From NCBI RefSeq assembly GCF_001447785.1, contig NW_015167071.1, positions 1 through 64,000 of the forward strand: DNA of 64,000 nucleotides, written 5' to 3'. Positions 16,001-52,800 of the stretch are shown here, piece by piece. Every line of letters begins with the position of its first letter. Within the stretch, counting starts at the first letter, position 1. Under the pieces are notes generated by a model that did no database searches, had not been told where the DNA came from, and worked only from the letters and a program-made list of their open reading frames with translations. Origin of the DNA: Gekko japonicus (lineage: Eukaryota). The translations under genes and the position numbers were made by a program.

Positions 16001-17557
16001 ACTAGAAAATGAAGGATGGGTCATAAGAACATAAGAGACACCAATGTTGGATCAGGCCAAAGGCCCATCCAGTCCAACACTCTGTGTCACACAGTGGCCA
16101 GAAATACCAGTGCCATCAGGAGGTCCAGCAGTGGGGCCAGGACATTAGAAGCCCTCCCACTGTTGACCCCCCCCAAGCACCAAGAAGACAGAGCATCACT
16201 TGCCCCAGAGCCCCTAGCTATACCTTGTGGCTAATAGCCACTGATGGACCTCTGCTCCATATGCTTATCTAATTCCCTTTTGAAGCCATCCATGCTTGTA
16301 GCACCCACCACTTCCTGTGGCAGTGAATTCCAAGTGTTAATCACTCTTTGGGTGAAGAAGGACGTCCTCTTTCCCATGCATAATCTTATAAACCTCGATC
16401 ATGTCACCCCTCAGTCGTCTTTTCTCCAAGCTAAAGAGCCCTAAGCGCTTTAACCTTTCCTCATAGGGAAAGTGTTCCAACCCTTTTATCATTCGAGTTG
16501 CCCTTTTCTGCACTTTTTCCAAAGCTATAATATCCTTTTTAAGGTGTGGTGCCCAGAACTGCACACAGTATTCCAAATGAGGTCTCACCATTGATTTATA
16601 TAGGGGCATTATTATATTGGCTGATCTGTTTTCAATACCCTTCCTAATAATCCCCAGCATAGCATTGGCCTTCTTTATTGCAGTCACACACTGTCTCGAC
16701 ATTTTCAGTGAGTTATCCACTACAACTCCAAGATCTCTCTCTTGCTCAGTCTCTGCCAGTTCAGACCCCATCAATGTGTATTTATATTTAGGATTTTTGG
16801 CTCCAATGTGCATCACCTTGCACTTGGCCACATTGAACCCCATTTGCCATGTTGACGCCCACTCGCCCATCCTTGACAGATCCCCTTGGAGTGCCTCACA
16901 ATCCTCACTGGTTTTCACCACCCTGAACAACTTTGTATCATCTGCAAATTTAGCCACTTCACTGCTTACTCCCATCTCCAAATCATTAATGAACAAGTTA
17001 AAAAGCAGTGGACCAAGTACTGATCCCTGCGGTACCCCACTGCTTACCACCCTCCACTGAGAAAATTTCCCACCTACACTCACTCTCTGTTTTCTATGAA
17101 CTAGCCAGTTTTTGATCCATAAAAGGACTTGTCCTTCTATCCCATGATTTTTGAGCTTACTTAGGAGCCTTTGATGAGGAACTTTATCAAAAGCTTTCTG
17201 GAAGTCAAGGTAAATAATATCTATTGGATCCCCCTTGTCCACATGTTTGTTCACCCCCTCAAAGAACACTAACAGGTTAGTGAGACAAGATCTTCAGTGT
17301 CCTTCTAACAATTTGGGCAAACCATGATACTTGACAAAGGTGTCCCCAGTTCCAAATAGTACCTCACAGTTGAGATCCTGAAAAATATCCTTGTTTTTTG
17401 TCTTTGTTTTTTACAGAAGCAAACAATTGAGCATATACCTCTTACCAGAGTGGAATACAGATGGCATGAGGCATCCTTCTCTTTTTATGTTTATGGAAAT
17501 GAACGCAAGGTGTATACTGAAGATTATCCTAAAAAGTGTTGCTGTACCATCATATGA
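447..17557 (+). CDS. SSUH2: SSUH2-like gene, paralog A (spliced, 9 coding exons seen, 5'-partial; about 301 aa visible)
   Basis: Exons 447-576, 1759-1819, 4439-4557, 5919-5981, 8741-8826, 11056-11148, 11940-12045, 13544-13651 and 17417-17557 splice in consistent phase into one open frame: IPCISEAEAREAFLEYASSHCCYSS..NTYRYRLETFTESR..PW..PHTTSIK, six CxxC repeats, WKNDVFEYV..IYPIINFP..RILRQKQTIEHIPLTRVEY..FYVYGNERKVYTEDYPKKCCCTII*. These motifs match the SSUH2 (C3orf32) family as recalled. It may be an SSUH2-like paralog rather than the strict ortholog. Confidence 0.93.
1759..1819 (+). CDS. SSUH2: SSUH2-like A coding exon (YRLETFTESRSLEWRTKPFT)
   Basis: TAG acceptor, GTAAAA donor, 61 nt, family motif YRLETF.ESR. 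Confidence 0.93.
4060..4126. repeat. Short imperfect tandem repeat GTGAACACTATTTCAGT x3
   Basis: Three copies visible directly. Confidence 0.8.
4439..4557 (+). CDS. SSUH2: SSUH2-like A coding exon (GKIDVPVVVADLPWNVPVAVPKMFENNTEEVMMPHTTSIK)
   Basis: T-rich tract and CAG acceptor, GTACAG donor, phase 1 to 0; PW..P.MF..PH motif. Confidence 0.92.
5919..5981 (+). CDS. SSUH2: SSUH2-like A coding exon (ECSVCMASGKITCKQCSGRTK)
   Basis: AAG acceptor, GTAAGC donor, 63 nt, two CxxC motifs; same size as B exon 52542-52604. Confidence 0.9.
6027..6631. mobile_element. Non-autonomous hAT-type DNA transposon
   Basis: Terminal inverted repeats (TIRs) TAGGGATGGGCA / TGCCCATCCCTA; 8-bp TSD ATAATGTG / ATAATGTA. 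Confidence 0.75.
7601..7804. mobile_element. hAT MITE, about 205 bp, copy 1
   Basis: TIR CAGTGTTCCCTCTAAGCT; 8-bp TSD TCTGCAGG / CCTGCAGG. Confidence 0.85.
7950..8640 (+). mobile_element. Highly degenerate DIRS-like tyrosine recombinase fragment (tentative)
   Basis: Translation W..FVQKPFIKAAIEALHSVPPHELSSVVALLVITASA..AL and a downstream F.PKV resemble the DIRS recombinase pattern WDL.LVL.AL..PPFEPL..LK.AFL.AITSARR. Many stops; boundaries approximate. Confidence 0.35.
8741..8826 (+). CDS. SSUH2: SSUH2-like A coding exon (DQCHWCKGTGVFISDTCSHCSGTGSSSTL)
   Basis: TAG acceptor, GTAAGA donor, two CxxCxGxG motifs; phase 0 to 2 fits both neighbouring exons. Confidence 0.87.
8869..9420. mobile_element. 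CpG-rich MITE-like element (Harbinger-like TIRs, tentative)
   Basis: Imperfect TIRs GGGTGCGGTCACACG / TGTGTGATCACAGCC; related ends occur at 19752 and 59635. Confidence 0.5.
9948..10165 (+). mobile_element. Short interspersed repeat with CR1-like 3' end (contains a (TG)n run at about 10044-10077)
   Basis: Ends GGTCTCTTCCAACTCTATGATTCTGTGATTCTA; related copies at about 20360-20640 (-) and 62495-62706 (+). Confidence 0.6.
11056..11148 (+). CDS. SSUH2: SSUH2-like A coding exon (CRACSGRGTVNCKDCNGQGRLLTYNALVVNW) with GC donor
   Basis: CAG acceptor; 93 nt like B exon 58625-58717; donor is GCAAGT and gives the split TG|G Trp codon seen in B. Confidence 0.88.
11940..12045 (+). CDS. SSUH2: SSUH2-like A coding exon (KNDVFEYVAHQRSDFPAKLFQAVTGQKLFVDEQDM)
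   Basis: CAG acceptor, GTAATG donor, 106 nt like B exon 61123-61228. Confidence 0.92.
12463..12814 (+). mobile_element. Sauria SINE, full length
   Basis: tRNA-like head GGTGGCTCAAGTGGTTAAG, body AGTAGATAAATAGGTACC, (ACCTTT)n tail, TSD TAGCAACAGTA / TAGCAGCAGTA. Confidence 0.85.
13544..13651 (+). CDS. SSUH2: SSUH2-like A coding exon (IYPIINFPDSSINDASRNAVERHRSQFTSTSRILRQ)
   Basis: TAG acceptor after a pyrimidine tract, GTGAGT donor, 108 nt, YPI..FP and RIL.Q motifs. Confidence 0.92.
16022..17295 (-). mobile_element. CR1 LINE, 5'-truncated (reverse transcriptase C-terminal part), with an internal deletion of about 98 bp
   Basis: ORF 16337-17269 has YLDFQKAFDKVPH, GVPQGSVLGP, FADDTKL and RPHLEYC motifs; (TTCTTATG)n tail. 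Confidence 0.95.
17417..17557 (+). CDS. SSUH2: SSUH2-like A terminal coding exon (KQTIEHIPLTRVEYRWHEASFSFYVYGNERKVYTEDYPKKCCCTII*)
   Basis: T-rich tract and CAG acceptor; QTIE.IP, YVYG and DYP motifs; C-terminal CaaX; TGA at 17555-17557. Confidence 0.94.
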   Translation, partial: KQTIEHIPLTRVEYRWHEASFSFYVYGNERKVYTEDYPKKCCCTII

Positions 17558-28216: not shown

Positions 28217-30005
28217 ATAGAATCATAGAAACATAGAATGTGAGAGTTGGAAGGGACCTTGCAGGTCATCTAGTCCAACCCCCTGCACTCTGCAGGAGCA
28301 TAGCCAAAAGATAGCCCTACATACCTACATACCTACAACATATCCGAAAGATGGTCGTCCAGCCTCTGCTTGAAAATGTCCAGCGAAGGAGCAGCACACC
28401 ACCTCCCAAGGCAGACTGTTCCACTGCTCAACCACTCTTACAGTTAGGAAGTTTCTCCTGATATTTAGCCAGTAACGACTCCCTTGTAATTTCCACCCAT
28501 TAGACCTAGTCTTGCAATCCAGAGCAAGAGAGAATAGATCCATTCCATCTTCTACATGACAGCCATTCAAATACTTGAAGACTGCAATCATGTCCCCTCT
28601 AAGCCTTCTCTTTCCCAAGCTAAACATACCCAACNNNNNNNNNNNNNNNNNNNNNNNNNNNNNNNNNNNNNNNNNNNNNNNNNNNNNNNNNNNNNNNNNN
28701 NNNNNNNNNNNNNNNNNNNNNNNNNNNNNNNNNNNNNNNNNNNNNNNNNNNNNNNNNNNNNNNNNNNNNNNNNNNNNNNNNNNNNNNNNNNNNNNNNNNN
28801 NNNNNNNNNNNNNNNNNNNNNNNNNNNNNNNNNNNNNNNNNNNNNNNNNNNNNNNNNNNNNNNNNNNNNNNNNNNNNNNNNNNNNNNNNNNNNNNNNNNN
28901 NNNNNNNNNNNNNNNNNNNNNNNNNNNNNNCAGCCCACTGTTCCAGCCTATCTAGATCATTTTGAATCCTGACTCTGTCTTCTTCAGAATTAGCAATCCC
29001 ACCCAGCTTCGTGTCATCTGCAAATTTGATAAGCATCCCCCCATGTCTTCCTCCAGGTCATTTATAAAAAAATTAAAAAACACCGGGCCTAGGACTGAGC
29101 CCCGAGGCAATCCACTTGAGACTTCCCTCCACATAGACGCAGAGCCATTTACGAGCACTCGTTGGGTACGATTTTTCAACCAACCACGAATCCATCTAAC
29201 GGTTGCACCATCCAGCCCACACTTAATCAGCTTATCCTCAAGGATATCATGAGAAACTTTGTGAAATGCTTTACTGAAATCTAGATACACTATATCCACA
29301 GCATTGCCAGAGTCAACCATTTTAGTAACTCTGTCAAAAAAGGAGATAAGCTTGGTCTGGCATGACTTATTCTTGATAAACCCATGCTGGCTACTACCAA
29401 TTAACTCATTCCATTCAAGGTGCTCACATATAGAGCATTTAATAATCTGCTCTAGAATTTTCCTAAGTATTGATGTCAAACTGACAGGCCTGTAATTTCC
29501 CGGGTCCATCTTTTCCCCCTTCTTGAAGATCGGGACAACATTCGCTCTTCTCCAGTCTTCCAGCACAACACCAGTACTCCAGGACATATCAAAGATTAGA
29601 GCCAGAGGCTCTGAAATAACATCTGCAGTTTCTTTTAGCACCCTGGGACGCAAGCCATCTGGCCCTGGAGATTTGAAAGTATTTAAGGCAGCTAGATGCT
29701 CTCTAACCATTTCCTTACTTACTCTGGACCAGCAGTTCCCCCGTCCTTCATATGCCCTGCCTTCTTCCATTTGTATATAGCTCACCTTATAGTTAAAGAC
29801 CGATGCAAAGGGAGAGTTGAATAATTCCACTTTGTCTTCATCCCTTGTTAAGGCTTGACCATCTTCTCCTAGCAATGAGCTTACCCCATCCATGTTCTTC
29901 TTTTTGCTTTAAACATAGGCATAGGAATTTTTCTTGTTATTTGTAGCATCCCCCACAATCCTCAGCTCCATCTGCGCTTTAGCCTTTCTGACACCATCCT
30001 TCAGC
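28217..30005 (-). mobile_element. CR1 LINE, 5'-truncated (second subfamily), spanning an assembly gap at 28635-28930
   Basis: ORF2 motifs [39 protein letters not shown] and FADDTKL; (ATTCTATG)n tail. Confidence 0.93.
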
Positions 30006-33458: not shown

Positions 33459-33856
33459 ATGTTAGCCCTCTGCTTATCAGTTAATTTTTACAATAGAATA
33501 AATGTTGTGCTGTTGAGAGTTAGGGTTAGGTTTAGGGGGAAATCCACACCAGGCATTTGGTGACAAGCATGCACTTTCTGTAGCACATGCTCACAGCCAG
33601 CAAACTGTGACTGATTTAGGTCTCTTTCTGCCTCCCCACCATGGTTATCTGTAAAACTGAAGGGAAGTCCTTACATAGGAAGTCCTTACATAGCATCACA
33701 CATTGTGTAACACACTGCAGAACACAAGGACTGGTAGAGTTAAACTTTCAGTGACATTCATATTGCCTCTCAGTGGCTCTTGGGCAAACCCATTTTCTCA
33801 GTCCCACTCCCTATTTACAAAATGGGCCCACTCCCTATTTACAAAATGGGAATAAG

Positions 33857-35569
33857 GAGTTTCTGGTTTTGGCGAGTCGCTGACGGGTGCATTTCATCGA
33901 GCTCCAATGAATGCGACCTGTGACCGTAGTGGCTGGGAGGGGTACTGGATGATTCTGGTCCCCACCGCTGCGAGACCAGCAACGGCAGCAGAAACGCACA
34001 CCGGGACAGGCGAACAGGAGATCAAGCACTTTAAAGGTCTCCCTACCTTACTGAAGCAAGCAGCCGATGAAGAGTGAGTCTGTATGCTTTTAATCCAGAC
34101 AAAAATCTAAGCGGACAGCTTCCCCCAACCCCTTAAATTCAAAAGTGGAGGGAATTGAGCTGGTCTTATCCTGGGAGAAAAAAGCAGCAACTGTAAGAGG
34201 TGGAGGGGGGGGGGAAGCTGATTAAAAAGCATTGTTTAGCACAAATAGAGTGCTGACTGGTTAAAAAGCATGATTGAATAAACCTACAGAGACTTTTTTG
34301 GACTTTCTCTTAATGTAAACAATCCTGCATCGGACTGAAAAAATGGCACCGAAAGTCTTCTCCTTCAGGGACTTTCAGCTCAACAGCATCAGCTTCCAAA
34401 CAGGAAGCAACCATAGACTTTCCAAGCATGTTAACCACTGCACTTCACCCTCTACTGGACCAGATGACTCATCTTAATAATAACTTTGAGACTCTCAAAA
34501 AATAGCTAAAAGAAGTCAATATAAAAACAGAGAATACAGCAAAGTCAGTGCGAAAAGTCAATGCTAAGACAAAAGCATCGAAACAGAGACTGGAGGCAGT
34601 GGAAAAAGAGAAAGCCTTTCATAAACAACAGCTGTTAAAACTACAAATGGAAAAATCATCATTTATCCTGAGATTTCAAGGTATTCTGGAACAAAATGGG
34701 GAAAACCTCAAGGAGATTTTAAGTGACGCCTTGGCACCAGTAGTAGACCTTAAAGCGGAACTTATACAAAACGAAATGGATGTAGTCTACTGGACTTATC
34801 CAGACCACATCAAGAAAAATAAGGTACCTGGTGAAATATTTGTGAAATTCTCCAAAATGTCTATTAGAGATGCTATACTCAAAGCGACTAACAGGATTAC
34901 TCTAAAAATCAAAGGTGAAGAAATTAGAATTTTAAAAGACATTCCATTTGAGATAAGAAAGACGAGACAACAATACAAAAAACTGACAACATATCTACAG
35001 AAAAATTCCACTCCCTACAGGTGGATTTTGCCAGAGGGTCTTATCTTCAACTTCAAAGAGAAAAAATAGATTCTGTTATAAAAGCTAAAGCATTTTTTGG
35101 AACAGCATCAAAAAACAGAGAAAGATGGAAAAGTGGAGGACAACAATGCAGAAGAAGAGTACAGCAGAACTGGGTCAGGAAACAGCTCTACAGCGGGCAG
35201 CTCCTCAGGAGAAGATTCTGAATCTGAAGCTGCCCCCAAACTTCTTAAAGTCAGATGGAACTATGATAAAGATAAGCCTAAAGGGAAAAAAAAACTAAAA
35301 ATGAATGAACCCTGAAAGTTTAATAATATTTAGCTTAAAATACCAGAATACACTTTATTGGCTAATATTGTTTGTACTGGAATATATCTGAATCAGCTAA
35401 TCTCACTCTTCATCATGTAGAATGTTAAAGCTAAGGGAAATTTTGGAAAAAGTAATTCTTTATCATATTAGATCCCTGTTTATCTGTATTTTATAGTTAA
35501 CTTTTCCACGTTCCATGCCCTTTGTAGTATGTAGTGAAAATGTAATAAAAATTTAAAAAAACAAAAAAA
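33857..35569 (+). mobile_element. Apparently full-length L1-related element encoding only ORF1 (half-L1-like), decayed
   Basis: 16-bp TSD ACAAAATGGGAATAAG (33841-33856 and 35570-35585), CpG-rich 5' UTR, disrupted ORF1 at about 34343-35315 (coiled coil, LRFQGILE RRM-like segment, KDIP..YRW..P C-terminal domain), AATAAA and poly(A); no ORF2. Confidence 0.85.
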
Positions 35570-36519
35570 ACAAAATGGGAATAAGAATCTTTTTTTTAGA
35601 AGGCTCTATGAAGGCTTATGCAATTTGTAGATCATTCCTGGTTCCTTTAGATATAATCCTTTGTGGTGACATTTCTACCTTGTATACAATCACAAGGGAG
35701 TGAGGCTCAGGAAAGGCATGACATTTTACAACCAAGTCTCCATTTTCCATGGTGAGCTTCTCTAAATACAGTTAAACAACAAATAAGAAATATACTTCCT
35801 AAGCAATGCTTTCTGTGGATGATCTTCTAACAGGCAAGACAACTCTTCCTGATTGGGGTCAAACTCAGGTCAGCCAAGTCAGCAGATCATAAACTTTTAC
35901 TATAATGTATATTATAAATATACAGTAAAAGCATATAACCAAGAGATCCTTGTCCCTACATTTGTCCGTTTTTACCAGAGAGCCAGTGTGGCGAAGTCTA
36001 GACTAGAATGTCAGACCAGGATCTTTAAGAGAATGATTTAAGCCATTATTATTGCATACATTATAATGGAACAGTCTCCCCCACCAATACTTGTGGGTGT
36101 AGGTTTAGTTCTCATGGGGTGAAGCCTCTGCTTGTTAGTTCTGTTCCTTGGTTTAAAAAATTATAGACTGCTTGAGCTAGCCTGTCTGAGACCAGTTGTG
36201 TCCATCCCTGCATCTTCTTGCTAATAAATGGATATTGTTTTGAATGCAGCTGTATCTCCTATGTGAACCTGACAGCAGGAACCTTAGTGAGTATCCAGTT
36301 CCCAATTTGCAAGCAAAAGGGAACATCTCAAGCGTCCCCAATGGGGTGAAAGGCATGGTATAAATGAAGTAAATAAATAAAGAACATTTGTATTCTTTCT
36401 CTGTTAGTTACTCAACAGAGCTCAGATTATAAAACATCCACAAAAAGATGAAGGCATATCCTAGAGGCCTGAGCTGACTGCTCATCATGTCTAGGATGAT
36501 ACATTTTTAGGGTTGCCAG

Positions 36520-41914: not shown

Positions 41915-43310
41915 GAACATAAGAACATAAGAGATGCCAATGTTGGATCAGGCCAAAGGCCCATCCAGTCCAACACTCTGTGCCACACAGTGGCCAGAAA
42001 TACCAGTGCCATCAGGAGGTCCACCAGTGGGGCCAGGACATTAGAAGCCATTCCACTGTTGACCCCCCCCAAGCACCAAGATGACAGAGCATCACTTGCC
42101 TCAGAGTCCCTATCTATACCTTGTGGCTAATAGCCACTGATGGACCTCTGCTCCATATGCTTATCTAATTCCCTTTTGAAGCCGTCCATGCTTGTAGCCG
42201 CCGCCACTTCCTGTGGCAGTGAATTCCAAGTGTTAATCACTCTTTGGGTGAAGAAGTACTTCCTTTAATCCGTTATAACCCGACCGCTCAGCAATTTCAT
42301 GGAGTGCCCACGAGTTCTTGTATTGTGAGAAAGGGAGAAAAGTACCTCTTTCTCTACCTGCTCTTTCCCATGCATAATCTTATAAACCTCAATCATGTCA
42401 CCCCTCAGTCGTCGTTTCTCCAAGCTAAAGAGCCCTAAGCGCCTTAACCGTTCCTCATAGGGAAAGTGTTCCAACCCCTTTATCATTCGAGTTGCCCTTT
42501 TCTGCACTTTTCCCAAAGCTATAATATCCTTTTTAAGGTGTGGTGCCCAGAACTGCACACAGTATTCCAAATGAGGTCTCACCATTGATTTATATAGGGG
42601 CATTATTATATTGGCTGATCTGTTTTCAATACCCTTCCTAATAATCCCCAGCATAGCATTGGCCTTCTTTATTGCAGTCACACACTGTCTCGACATTTTC
42701 AGTGAGTTATCCACTACAACTCCAAGATCTCTCTCTTGATCAGTCTCTGCCAGTTCAGACCCCATCAACGTGTATTTATAGTTAGGATTTTTGGCTCCAA
42801 TGTGCATCACCTTGCACTTGGCCACATTGAACCCCATTTGCCATGTTGACGCCCACTCGCCCATCCTTGACAGATCCCCTTGGAGTGCCTCACAATCCTC
42901 ACTGGTTTTCACCACCCTGAACAACTTTGTATCATCCGCAAATTTAGCCACTTCACTGCTTACTCCCATCTCCAAATCATTAATGAACAAGTTAAAAAGC
43001 AGTGGACCAAGTACTGATCCCTGCGGTACCCCACTGCTTACCACCCTCCACTGAGAAAATTGCCCACCTACACTCACTCTCTGTTTTCTATGAACTAGCC
43101 AGTTTTTGATCCATAAAAGGACTTGTCCTTTTATCCCATGATTTTTGAGCTTACTTAGGAGCCTTTGATGAGGAACTTTATCAAAAGCTTTCTGGAAGTC
43201 AAGGTAAACAATATCTATTGGATCCCCCTTGTCCACATGTTTGTTCACCCCCTCAAAGAACATTAACAGGTTAGTGAGACAAGATCTTCCCTTACAGTAC
43301 CCATGTTGAG
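41915..43310 (-). mobile_element. CR1 LINE, 5'-truncated, near-identical to 16022-17295
   Basis: Uninterrupted 332-aa RT ORF at 42265-43263; (TTCTTATG)n tail. Confidence 0.95.
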
Positions 43311-43771
43311 TGGTGAATTACAAAACACCTGTAATTGGACAGATTCTATGTAATCTGACCTTTTAACATTTATTATTACAATAACACTTCTGAACTTTGA
43401 AATTGGAAAGTAGTTCCCTAATCTCTTTCAGCTGCCACCACCTTGTGATTTTAAGTAACAATGTTTCTTCCTTTTTTTTAATCTTAAGCATGTAGATGAA
43501 AGGAAGTGATTTCCTTGTAGCCATGGTATCCAACCACTTATCTCCCCACCCAACATCTAATACTTTGTCCTCTGGGCCATGTTTTATCTCTGTATGATTC
43601 ATAGTGCTAGCAAGGTTAAAGTTATAAGAATCACGTGCTTGTATAAGACATATTTATTGAGAACTAGGTGGCGGATTGTCCTGCTGTATCTGTCACATGA
43701 ACAGGGGAAGAGCAGTTCTTGGAGTTTGTGAATTGTTTCCTTCTTCAACACTTAGACTTTCTGTGTTATAG

Positions 43772-49800: not shown

Positions 49801-52800
49801 ACTAGACACCTGTGATTCAAGAACAGCTATGATTCTCACTGAAGAATGCTAGACATATGGATGTGGTAGCAAGGTAGAAGCCAGGAGATTTGGGAATATG
49901 GTTACTCTTTGTCCTAATGTGCATAATTTTCCTTTTGAGTAATCTTTTTTAAAAAAATTTGTTCCAGGTAGATTCATAGACTCCCGTGATGTTGCGCCCC
50001 CTCCTGCCCCTTGGGATGTAGTGGTGGATCCTCCTCCATTGTTCACAGACTGTAAAATGCATATCCCAATACCACATACGTATTCAGTGGAGGTAAGAAT
50101 CACAAAACACTGCCTTCTGTATACAGCATTTTAGCATTGATACTCCTATGCAGACACAGGTTTAAGTGATTTCCCCTGAGGTGTTTATGTATTTATTTTG
50201 TTTAAAATAGTGTGCTCCACCTTTGTACCTTACAAGGTCTTAGAAATCAAAGCTGTGTATCACATCAGTGGCTGAATAGGGAATGACGGACAGGCATTTT
50301 GAGTCTATAACCCTTTCCGTTCATTACATTCCAGCACTCCTAATGCAGAGATGAGGTTGCCGTTTTGCCTGAATCAGGCAACATGCATATATTCTGGCTT
50401 TGGTACATGTGATCATAGAATCATAGAATGTTAGAGCTGGAAGGGATCTTGAAGGTCATCTACTCCAACCCCCTGCACTCTGCAGGAGCATAGCTGAAAG
50501 ATAGCCCTACGTATCTACAACATACCCGAAAGATGGTCATCCAGCCTCCGCTTGAAAACATCCATCGAAGGAGCATCCACCACCTCCTGAGGCAGACGGT
50601 TCCACTGCTCAACCACTCTTACAGTTAGGAAGTTTCTCCTGATATTTAGCCGGTAACGGCTCCCTTGTAATTTCCACCCATTAGATCTAGTCTTGCAATC
50701 CGGAGCAAGAGAGAATAGATCTGCTCCATCTTCTACATGACAGCCCTTCAAATACTTGAAGACTGCAATTGTGTCCCCTCTAAGCCTTCTCTTTCCCAGG
50801 CTAAACATACCCAACTCTTTCAGCCTTTCCTCATAAGAGTTGGATTCCAACCCTCTCACCATCCTGGTTGCCCTCTTCTGGACACGCTCAAACTTGTCAA
50901 CATCCTTCCTAAAATGTGGTGCCCAAAACTGAACACAGTACTCCAGGTGAGGCCTGACCATAGCAGAATAGAGCGGAACTACCACCTCCCTTGATCTGGA
51001 CTCAATGCTTCTGTTAATGCATCCTAAGATCAAAAACCTTGCTTTTTCATGGTATTCATTTGTGCTTTTGGGAGCTGGAACATATGTTCACTTCCATGCA
51101 GTATGCTTTGCCAGTACATGTGACAGGACTGCTGGAAATGTAACAACTCAAAGGGACTTTTTACTCTAGAGAATAATCCTTCATCTAGTGAAAGGAAACT
51201 GCTAATTCATTCTAATATCCTGTCCTAAAACATAAAGATGGATTACGTATTACGGTGGTGGTGGTGGAAAGTGCCATCCAGTTGCATTTGATTTATGGCA
51301 ACTCCGTGAGGTTTTCAAGGCAAGAGATATTCTGAGATGGTTTGCCATTGCTTGGCTCTGTATAGTGAGCCTGGAATTCTTTGGTTGTCTCCCATCTAAA
51401 TACTAAGCAGGGTCAACCCTGCTTAGCTTCCAAGATGTGATGAGATCAGGCTAGCCTTGGCCATCCAGGTAATGGATGAAAACAGGGAGGAACTTCAATG
51501 GGGTATAATGCCATAGAGTCCTCCTTCCAAAGCAGCCATTTTCTCCAGGTGAACTGATCCCTATCACCTGGAGATCAGTTGTAATCCTGGGAAGTCTCCA
51601 GCAAAGTTCCCTCTAAGCTATGGAGCCCTGTGAGCAAAAATTCTACTTTGTGAGCTATTGGCATTAAAGTTGTGAGCAGGAGGTTTGGTTGTTGCATAAA
51701 TTAGTTTGTTCTGGAGCCATCCTTCCTGAGCTAAGACAAAAATGTGTGAGCCAGAGGCTAAAAAACTGTGAGCTAGCTCACATTAACTCAGCTTAGAGGG
51801 AACACTGGTCTCCAGGCACAATCTGGAGGTTGGCAACTCTAGGTCTATGGGTCAAGGATAATGGTTCAAGGGCTTCCTGTACCAGGTCCGTGGAGGCACC
51901 AAGGCCCCAGGCCAAATGAAGGCACCATCCAAATGATGTCCCAGGGTGTTCACTTAAGCTGTACTGCATACCATTCAAACAACTTGACCTGCACATCTAC
52001 CACCACAAGGGAGGACCAGTTCGTTCTTCCTGACAGCCACCTACTGTGTGCTTGGTAGAGCCAGAACATGGCCAGTGGATGCAACATACTGCCAGCAGAG
52101 CCTAGTGGATGCTGGGTATGCCTGAAGTGCCTGCAGAAAGAAAGTGAGCTCCTCAGTGGAGATGATGAAATGTCATGTGTTCGGTGCACTGACCCCAATA
52201 GAATCTGCCCTGTGAGGAGAGGCTGAACAAAGCCTGAGCAGCTCACACTCCCTCGTGCTGGGGAGGATGTTGTGGCAAAGAGCAGACGAGGCAGCAACAA
52301 ATAAGGACAAAAGCAGGGTTCACTGGGGAAGGGTATAGATGGACTGGGCAGGCTCCCACTGAACAAGGTAAAAATATCTTAGCCCTCAGTACCCACCCCA
52401 TGTATTCCTTCACATGTGCTAACTTCTGTGATGGTTTTCTTTTGCATCATGGCTGTGTCTGACTGTGTTTCTTGTAAAATATGCACTGTGGAAGCTTTGC
52501 AAATGGTTCAGTTATGCTGACCTCTTTTTTTCTGATTTTAGAATTGTCCAGACTGCAAAGGACGCGGCACAACTGTATGCCCATCATGTATCGGAACTGG
52601 CAAGGTAATACCAATTCTTATCAAGTATCTCTGTCCCTTTCCATGTGTAATTTTAATCTGTGAAAAATGGGCACATAAAGGCTTAAGAACAAAGAAGAAA
52701 AAAGGGAAAAAAACTGAACCTAAACCTAGAATTCAGAACCTAAAAAGGTTAGTCAAGAATAGAAGAGGGCCAACTCTAAAAATCTAATTATAAAACATAC

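Follow-up and report, generated by a model that had tools for sequence, protein, structure and literature searches.

Mammalian HAL1 (half-L1) elements were reportedly described by Smit in 1999 and by Bao and Jurka in 2010. In the parts of the literature consulted here, HAL1 is an L1 derivative that encodes ORF1p only and that arose several times in mammals (PMC5753468). Guinea pig HAL1 kept its coding capacity for 29-44 Myr, and HAL1-type elements have been proposed to need their own ORF1p (PMC3627910). HAL1 has been mentioned together with premature polyadenylation (PMC4859970) and is named, with HeT-A and Ag-Sponge, as an ORF1-only LINE (PMC5786205). The HAL1 descriptions that we found are all mammalian: no report of a reptile HAL1 was met in the literature searched, outside whose scope lay subscription journals, supplements, Repbase and Dfam. 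The terms "non-autonomous" and "nonautonomous" do not occur in the consulted part of a vertebrate L1 survey (PMC5381506), and the consulted part of bioRxiv 10.1101/050880 has no mention of ORF1-only elements.

The window, by which we mean the whole 64,000-nt stretch of Gekko japonicus DNA that was analysed, contains a dead, decayed copy of an ORF1-only (HAL1-type) retroelement family. Like mammalian HAL1, as portrayed in the passages cited above, the element is a non-autonomous L1 derivative with ORF1p only and a long-kept coding capacity, of a type assumed to depend on its ORF1p in cis and on ORF2p in trans. Unlike mammalian HAL1, it belongs to one clade that is split into four groups (A, which includes the window copy, B, C and D), one of them with near-identical copies, and a short hairpin precedes the tail in groups B, C and D. 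HeT-A of Drosophila and Ag-Sponge of mosquito are likewise ORF1-only, non-autonomous LINEs, but their parent clades are Jockey and CR1 instead of L1 (PMC5786205, in part). Lizard clade-1 L1, according to the consulted part of the survey (Boissinot and Sookdeo, 2016; PMC5381506), has an L1 ORF1p, poly(A) and a 5' start, GACTTCCGGT...ATGGCG, that recurs in similar form in groups B, C and D and as a variant in A; the gecko element differs in being without ORF2 and in having a 5' UTR of about 0.56 kb vs. 1.3 kb. The clade-1 5' pattern GACTTCCGGTG-N8-ATGGCG has similar, inexact counterparts in A-D and no exact match in the gecko's own genome (G000). The HAL1-type design is already known; the added interest of the gecko elements lies in the depth of the clade, its likely single origin and its recent activity. 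The window copy has the following parts:

33841-33856, + strand: 5' target-site duplication (TSD), 16 nt, 100% identical to 35570-35585
33857-34342, + strand: 5' UTR, likely an internal promoter (sequence reading)
34343-35298, + strand: L1-type ORF1 with coiled coil, RRM, CTD and acidic/serine tail; broken
35299-35543, + strand: 3' UTR, family-specific, with no similarity to the 3' UTRs of sampled autonomous L1s
35544-35549, + strand: AATAAA polyadenylation signal
35550-35569, + strand: decayed, A-rich poly(A) tail
35570-35585, + strand: 3' TSD, 16 nt, 100% identical to 33841-33856

The original prediction of a 1.71-kb unit with a perfect 16-bp TSD held: a 1713-nt unit (33857-35569) is flanked by two identical copies of ACAAAATGGGAATAAG and ends in the AATAAA and poly(A) that had been claimed for it. 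Contigs from two DNA runs of a single study (X1, X2) contain both junctions as well, so that an assembly error is unlikely to be the source of the structure. No joint corresponding to an empty site was present among the joints listed in X1, X2 and X19, and one RNA run placed few reads, on both strands, over the copy. At its 5' end the unit has the (G)ACTTCCGG-like terminus typical of the family. Its 5' UTR is CpG-rich as proposed, with 13 CpG in the first 220 nt (observed/expected 0.76) and a ratio of 0.55 over its whole length vs. 0.23 for the whole window. Compared with the rest of the family, this UTR is 100 nt short; the missing piece follows 33960 and lies between short GGTC repeats, so that the family unit is about 1.8 kb.

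ORF1 starts with an ATG at 34343 and is broken, as foreseen, by an in-frame stop (34503-34505) and several small indels. Alignment with sister copies places its end at about 35298 and gives a 3' UTR of about 245 nt; the predicted 3' UTR thus exists, with bounds other than the proposed 230 nt or so from 35315. A 187-aa open piece of ORF1 matches human LINE-1 ORF1p (PDB 2ykp, E 3e-4). The Pfam Transposase_22 profile, which had been suggested as a check, scored below threshold (14.5 bits, cut-off 22.4), and it was by PDB and fold matches and by its place among L1 ORF1s in the trees that the frame was recognized as L1 ORF1. The AlphaFold model used for fold comparison, that of an intact relative and with a mean pLDDT of only 59, has a long helix followed by RRM-like and CTD-like domains, and its 10 best fold matches are human ORF1p structures, 2ykp among them.

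The window element belongs to a multi-copy family whose members share both ends and poly(A), many of them with TSDs of their own. In a DNA search of G000 with a 1704-nt query (best 40 of 3607 candidates scored), 29 of the 30 best matches extended to query position 1673 or beyond, which confirms the common poly(A) site that had been expected of a family. A search with the 3' UTR (best 40 of 102 candidates scored) fetched 30 loci, all with family sequence, not ORF2, directly upstream. Full-length group A copies are mostly about 1.8 kb; 16 sampled copies of the window subfamily differ on average by 7.9% in ORF1, and the best 150 loci scored in a group A protein search are 60-100% identical. Twenty diverged group A loci, read with 6 kb of downstream sequence, have the same ends as the window family and no ORF2 start, and in a second organism's DNA run (X19) pieces at least 90% alike were found across the element. 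Exact TSDs of 10-21 nt flank 27 of 62 group A loci, and the corresponding counts are 13/30 for B, 16/30 for C and 28/50 for D, with a finder that missed more than half of the loci and returned a few TSDs that look spurious. In 63 of 84 cases a pyrimidine (C or T) immediately precedes the TSD; the TSD itself opens with A in 58 of 84, an A-richness partly forced by the adjoining tail. Of 63 group A copies, 51 have the coiled-coil motif RhxxhE, which the consulted part of the L1 survey ties to trimers and calls rare in lizard L1 (PMC5381506).

The claim that the unit leaves no room for ORF2 extends to its relatives. No ORF2 start follows ORF1 in any of 184 distinct ORF1-anchored loci of the clade (74 of A, 30 of B, 30 of C and 50 of D, three A loci without an ORF1 match being excluded), whereas an ORF2 start was present within 900 nt in 24 of 30 L1-type ORF1 loci outside the clade. 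Continuation of most copies into ORF2 had been named as the finding that would count against a family; none of the copies read continues into an ORF2 start. ORF2-like sequence lies within 900 nt after ORF1 in four of the 184 loci, each time starting inside the protein, at residues 83, 397, 472 and 609. In one the element sits within an L1 ORF2, with ORF2 pieces on both sides (L138); in another the ORF2 piece begins beyond the element's poly(A) (L227); a third stretch is a 28% match (L229), and the fourth is a fusion of element and ORF2-like sequence for which no explanation was found (L118). Loci picked by the 5' end motif had no ORF2 start either (0/20); two had ORF2-like matches, one from an inserted LINE of another clade and one 3 kb off and internal. 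In the genome searches, the best 40-150 of thousands of candidates were scored, and long N runs often interrupt long young L1s in the assembly, so that a clade member with ORF2 could have escaped notice.

Several rearranged loci were met on the way. At L140 (1516-3872 and 6363-7021), the 3' part of a group A copy is fused to L1 ORF2 at residue 83, its 5' part being inverted 2.5 kb further on, an unexplained rearrangement or template switch. L301, a candidate for ORF1 followed by ORF2, was rejected because the element there has been interrupted by an insertion of a LINE from a different clade. A group A copy at L320 (1528-4746) holds an inserted LINE that we take to be RTE/BovB-like and whose open frame spans 1051 codons. 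At L285, AATAAA and poly(A) come immediately after an ORF1 from an ORF2-bearing L1 clade; this is probably a single truncation event, and events of this type could give rise to new half-L1s. In mini copies of about 0.15-0.8 kb (L300, L303, L314), which have apparent TSDs, internal deletion has brought the 5' part up against the final 35-50 nt and the tail, apparently via short homologies.

The predicted squamate ORF1-only family is supported, but its extent had been drawn too narrowly, the window family being one twig of a four-group clade. The three further ORF1-only groups are each about 1.8 kb; throughout A-D the 5' UTR is about 0.56 kb and ORF1 about 310-335 codons long, and intact ORF1 frames are present among the relatives of the window copy. 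Groups B and C were reached through ORF1-only elements met as insertions within sampled autonomous L1s (best 150 loci scored and 30 read for each), and group D through the best outside protein, P0001 (129 loci scored, 50 read). ORF1p identity among these four co-existing groups is about 40%. In a maximum-likelihood tree of 40 ORF1 proteins, A-D and P0001 fall on one side of a branch with support 100/100, the other side holding 15 ORF2-bearing ORF1s of G000 and 11 outside proteins, with a midpoint root only; FastTree recovered the same clade from 97 and 80 rows with support 97 and 94. The 5' UTRs point the same way. Beyond the first 25 nt, alignments across groups gave z values of 4-26 in 17 of 18 pairs, while against three autonomous UTRs z was at most 4.3, with hardly any alignment. 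The groups share GAATTGAGGC-like and GTAAACA motifs, the latter (34315-34321 in the window) lying 10-25 nt before the ORF1 start in all seven aligned UTRs of A-D, with TAAACA preceded by G in six and by A in one; we take it to resemble a forkhead-factor site. Between AATAAA and the poly(A) tail, B, C and D have a short GC-paired hairpin (L171, L200, L259; -5.8 to -11.7 kcal/mol for 45-nt tails) that differs in sequence by group, was absent from three group A tails checked and could be a recognition or processing signal for ORF2p.

From these sequence comparisons, a single and old origin of the clade, by loss of ORF2 from an L1, is likely. Its ORF1p is only about 30-40% identical to those of the autonomous L1s sampled in G000. 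A homologous-protein search with one ORF1 found none at E 0.001 among 369 candidates; a profile search gave 538 relatives at E 0.001, the best of which are known as proteins alone. The window-lineage ORF1p groups with L1 ORF1s of squamate type, which makes an origin independent of mammalian HAL1 likely. The nearest named protein relatives are squamate and human ORF1p is about 15% identical, which also speaks against descent from mammalian HAL1, itself not in the trees. Downstream of its ORF1, L274 contains a further element that shares the 5' UTR motifs of the clade and whose ORF1 start is divergent; it may represent a fifth group.

ORF1 is under purifying selection in the source lineages, as judged from codon comparisons. 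Pairwise dN/dS (kappa fixed at 3; the 5'-truncated, misaligned L030 omitted) is 0.70 among 16 sister copies, or 0.81 without CpG codons, and net dN/dS between subfamilies is 0.12-0.35; a further comparison had a like trend. Intact frames are over-represented among copies that were chosen by protein score; the nearest contrasts (A1-A2 and A1-A3), which rest mostly on copies chosen by DNA, give 0.12-0.21. No stop position is common to more than two of the 16 sister copies, and the sole indel common to most of them is in frame. The private stops and frameshifts indicate that the sister copies descend from an intact source and broke down once inserted, and spread of the window subfamily with a dead ORF1 was rejected for the same reason. 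The tree of the copies is ladder-like, with many successive subfamilies.

The clade was recently active. All 20 group D copies compared (L250-L269, e.g., L259:907-2748) encode an identical 308-aa ORF1p, with 0-2 nucleotide differences in 927 nt, although these copies were chosen for equal scores and repeat collapse in the assembly could inflate their identity. The 5' 29-mer of the young D copies occurs exactly 47 times in G000. The second organism's DNA run matched a young D copy in only three short pieces at 95%, so that the D burst looks recent. Three RNA runs cover a young D copy lengthwise (280, 150 and 490 reads, at least 99% alike); the reads are on both strands, and read-through from host genes is a possible source. 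Skip joints in the reads of the young D copy were considered as empty sites and rejected, since they do not fall on the TSD. In one D copy (L260), the 3' end is found in inverted orientation on the 5' side, presumably as in L1 twin priming. On the strength of their near identity, the group D copies are likely still mobile.

How might such an element move? We are confident that the window holds a dead copy of a multi-copy HAL1-type element that likely borrows LINE-1 ORF2p and likely uses its own ORF1p. An intact source copy would be transcribed from the 5' UTR and polyadenylated at its own AATAAA, and the element's ORF1p would coat its own RNA. L1 ORF2p made elsewhere would bind the poly(A) tail of this RNA, nick a pyrimidine|A-rich site and copy the RNA by target-primed reverse transcription, which would leave the 10-21-nt TSD. 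We infer mobilisation by L1 ORF2p in trans, the TSDs and target signature being L1-like. No autonomous partner was found among the sampled L1s, which share neither the 5' nor the 3' end with the element and whose 3' UTRs are short and without similarity to its own. With a slight leaning beyond even, we further favour an ancient single lizard lineage of ORF1-only L1 parasites that outlived its parent, has its own promoter and a selected ORF1p, radiated and is still jumping.

The groups could instead stem from repeated separate truncations of unassembled or unsampled autonomous L1s, the ORF1 constraint being that of those parents. L285 demonstrates that L1 polyadenylation right after ORF1 is possible, and the scoring of best candidates only, with long N runs in many autonomous loci, leaves room for such parents. 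We nevertheless consider this improbable, because ORF1-ORF2 junctions do assemble outside the clade (24/30) and are absent within it (0/184), and because unit length and 5' UTR motifs are common to all groups, whose 3' ends are also similar. Slightly less credible still is an ORF1-only element moved by another LINE clade (RTE, CR1, L2 or Tx1). Reverse-transcriptase fragments that we take to be CR1-type are common, a presumably RTE-like element has a 1051-codon frame, and no L1 partner was matched by sequence; but the poly(A) tail, the 10-21-nt TSDs and the pyrimidine|purine target junction fit L1, and the ORF1p groups with L1 ORF1s. CR1 and RTE elements have short tandem repeat ends and need their own 3' sequence, which also disfavours them as the source of the machinery.

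Purifying selection on ORF1 is also what a domesticated host copy, comparable to mammalian L1TD1, would produce if it spawned processed pseudogenes. The many successive subfamilies of the ladder-like tree, four co-existing groups far apart in protein and the full L1-type 5' termini of the copies make this very unlikely. As to a single prematurely polyadenylated or internally deleted L1 copy, events of that kind exist (L285; PMC4859970, in part), yet the copies here number in the dozens, are dispersed and share their ends but not their TSDs, which already refutes it, and we give it practically no weight.

The lizard clade, likely independent of the mammalian elements, deep and recently active, suggests that L1 evolution has led repeatedly to an ORF1-only way of life, and that this is a stable state. 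If the lineage is as old and as active as favoured above, it would represent a long-lived class of protein-coding parasites beside SINEs and a natural system in which to study the need for ORF1p in cis and the means by which the preference of L1 for its own RNA is overcome. The near-identical intact copies make the proposed requirement for own ORF1p directly testable (PMC3627910, in part). For annotation, hundreds of copies would count as broken L1s or escape ORF2-based surveys.

Among the outside proteins, one from a gecko differs by about 0.05 substitutions per site from an L1 ORF1 of G000, and the L1 ORF1 proteins P0004 and P0010 are annotated publicly as "apolipoprotein A-IV-like" and "myosin-6-like", likely misannotations. 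Near the insertion, a perfect 24-nt tandem duplication (33803-33850), in a target stretch that may resemble an old MIR-type SINE, overlaps the 5' TSD, and a 15-nt tandem duplication lies at 33663-33692. Elsewhere in the window, LINE reverse-transcriptase fragments that we assume to be of the CR1 clade lie on the minus strand at 16337-17293, 28952-29908, 42265-43317 and 50515-51087.
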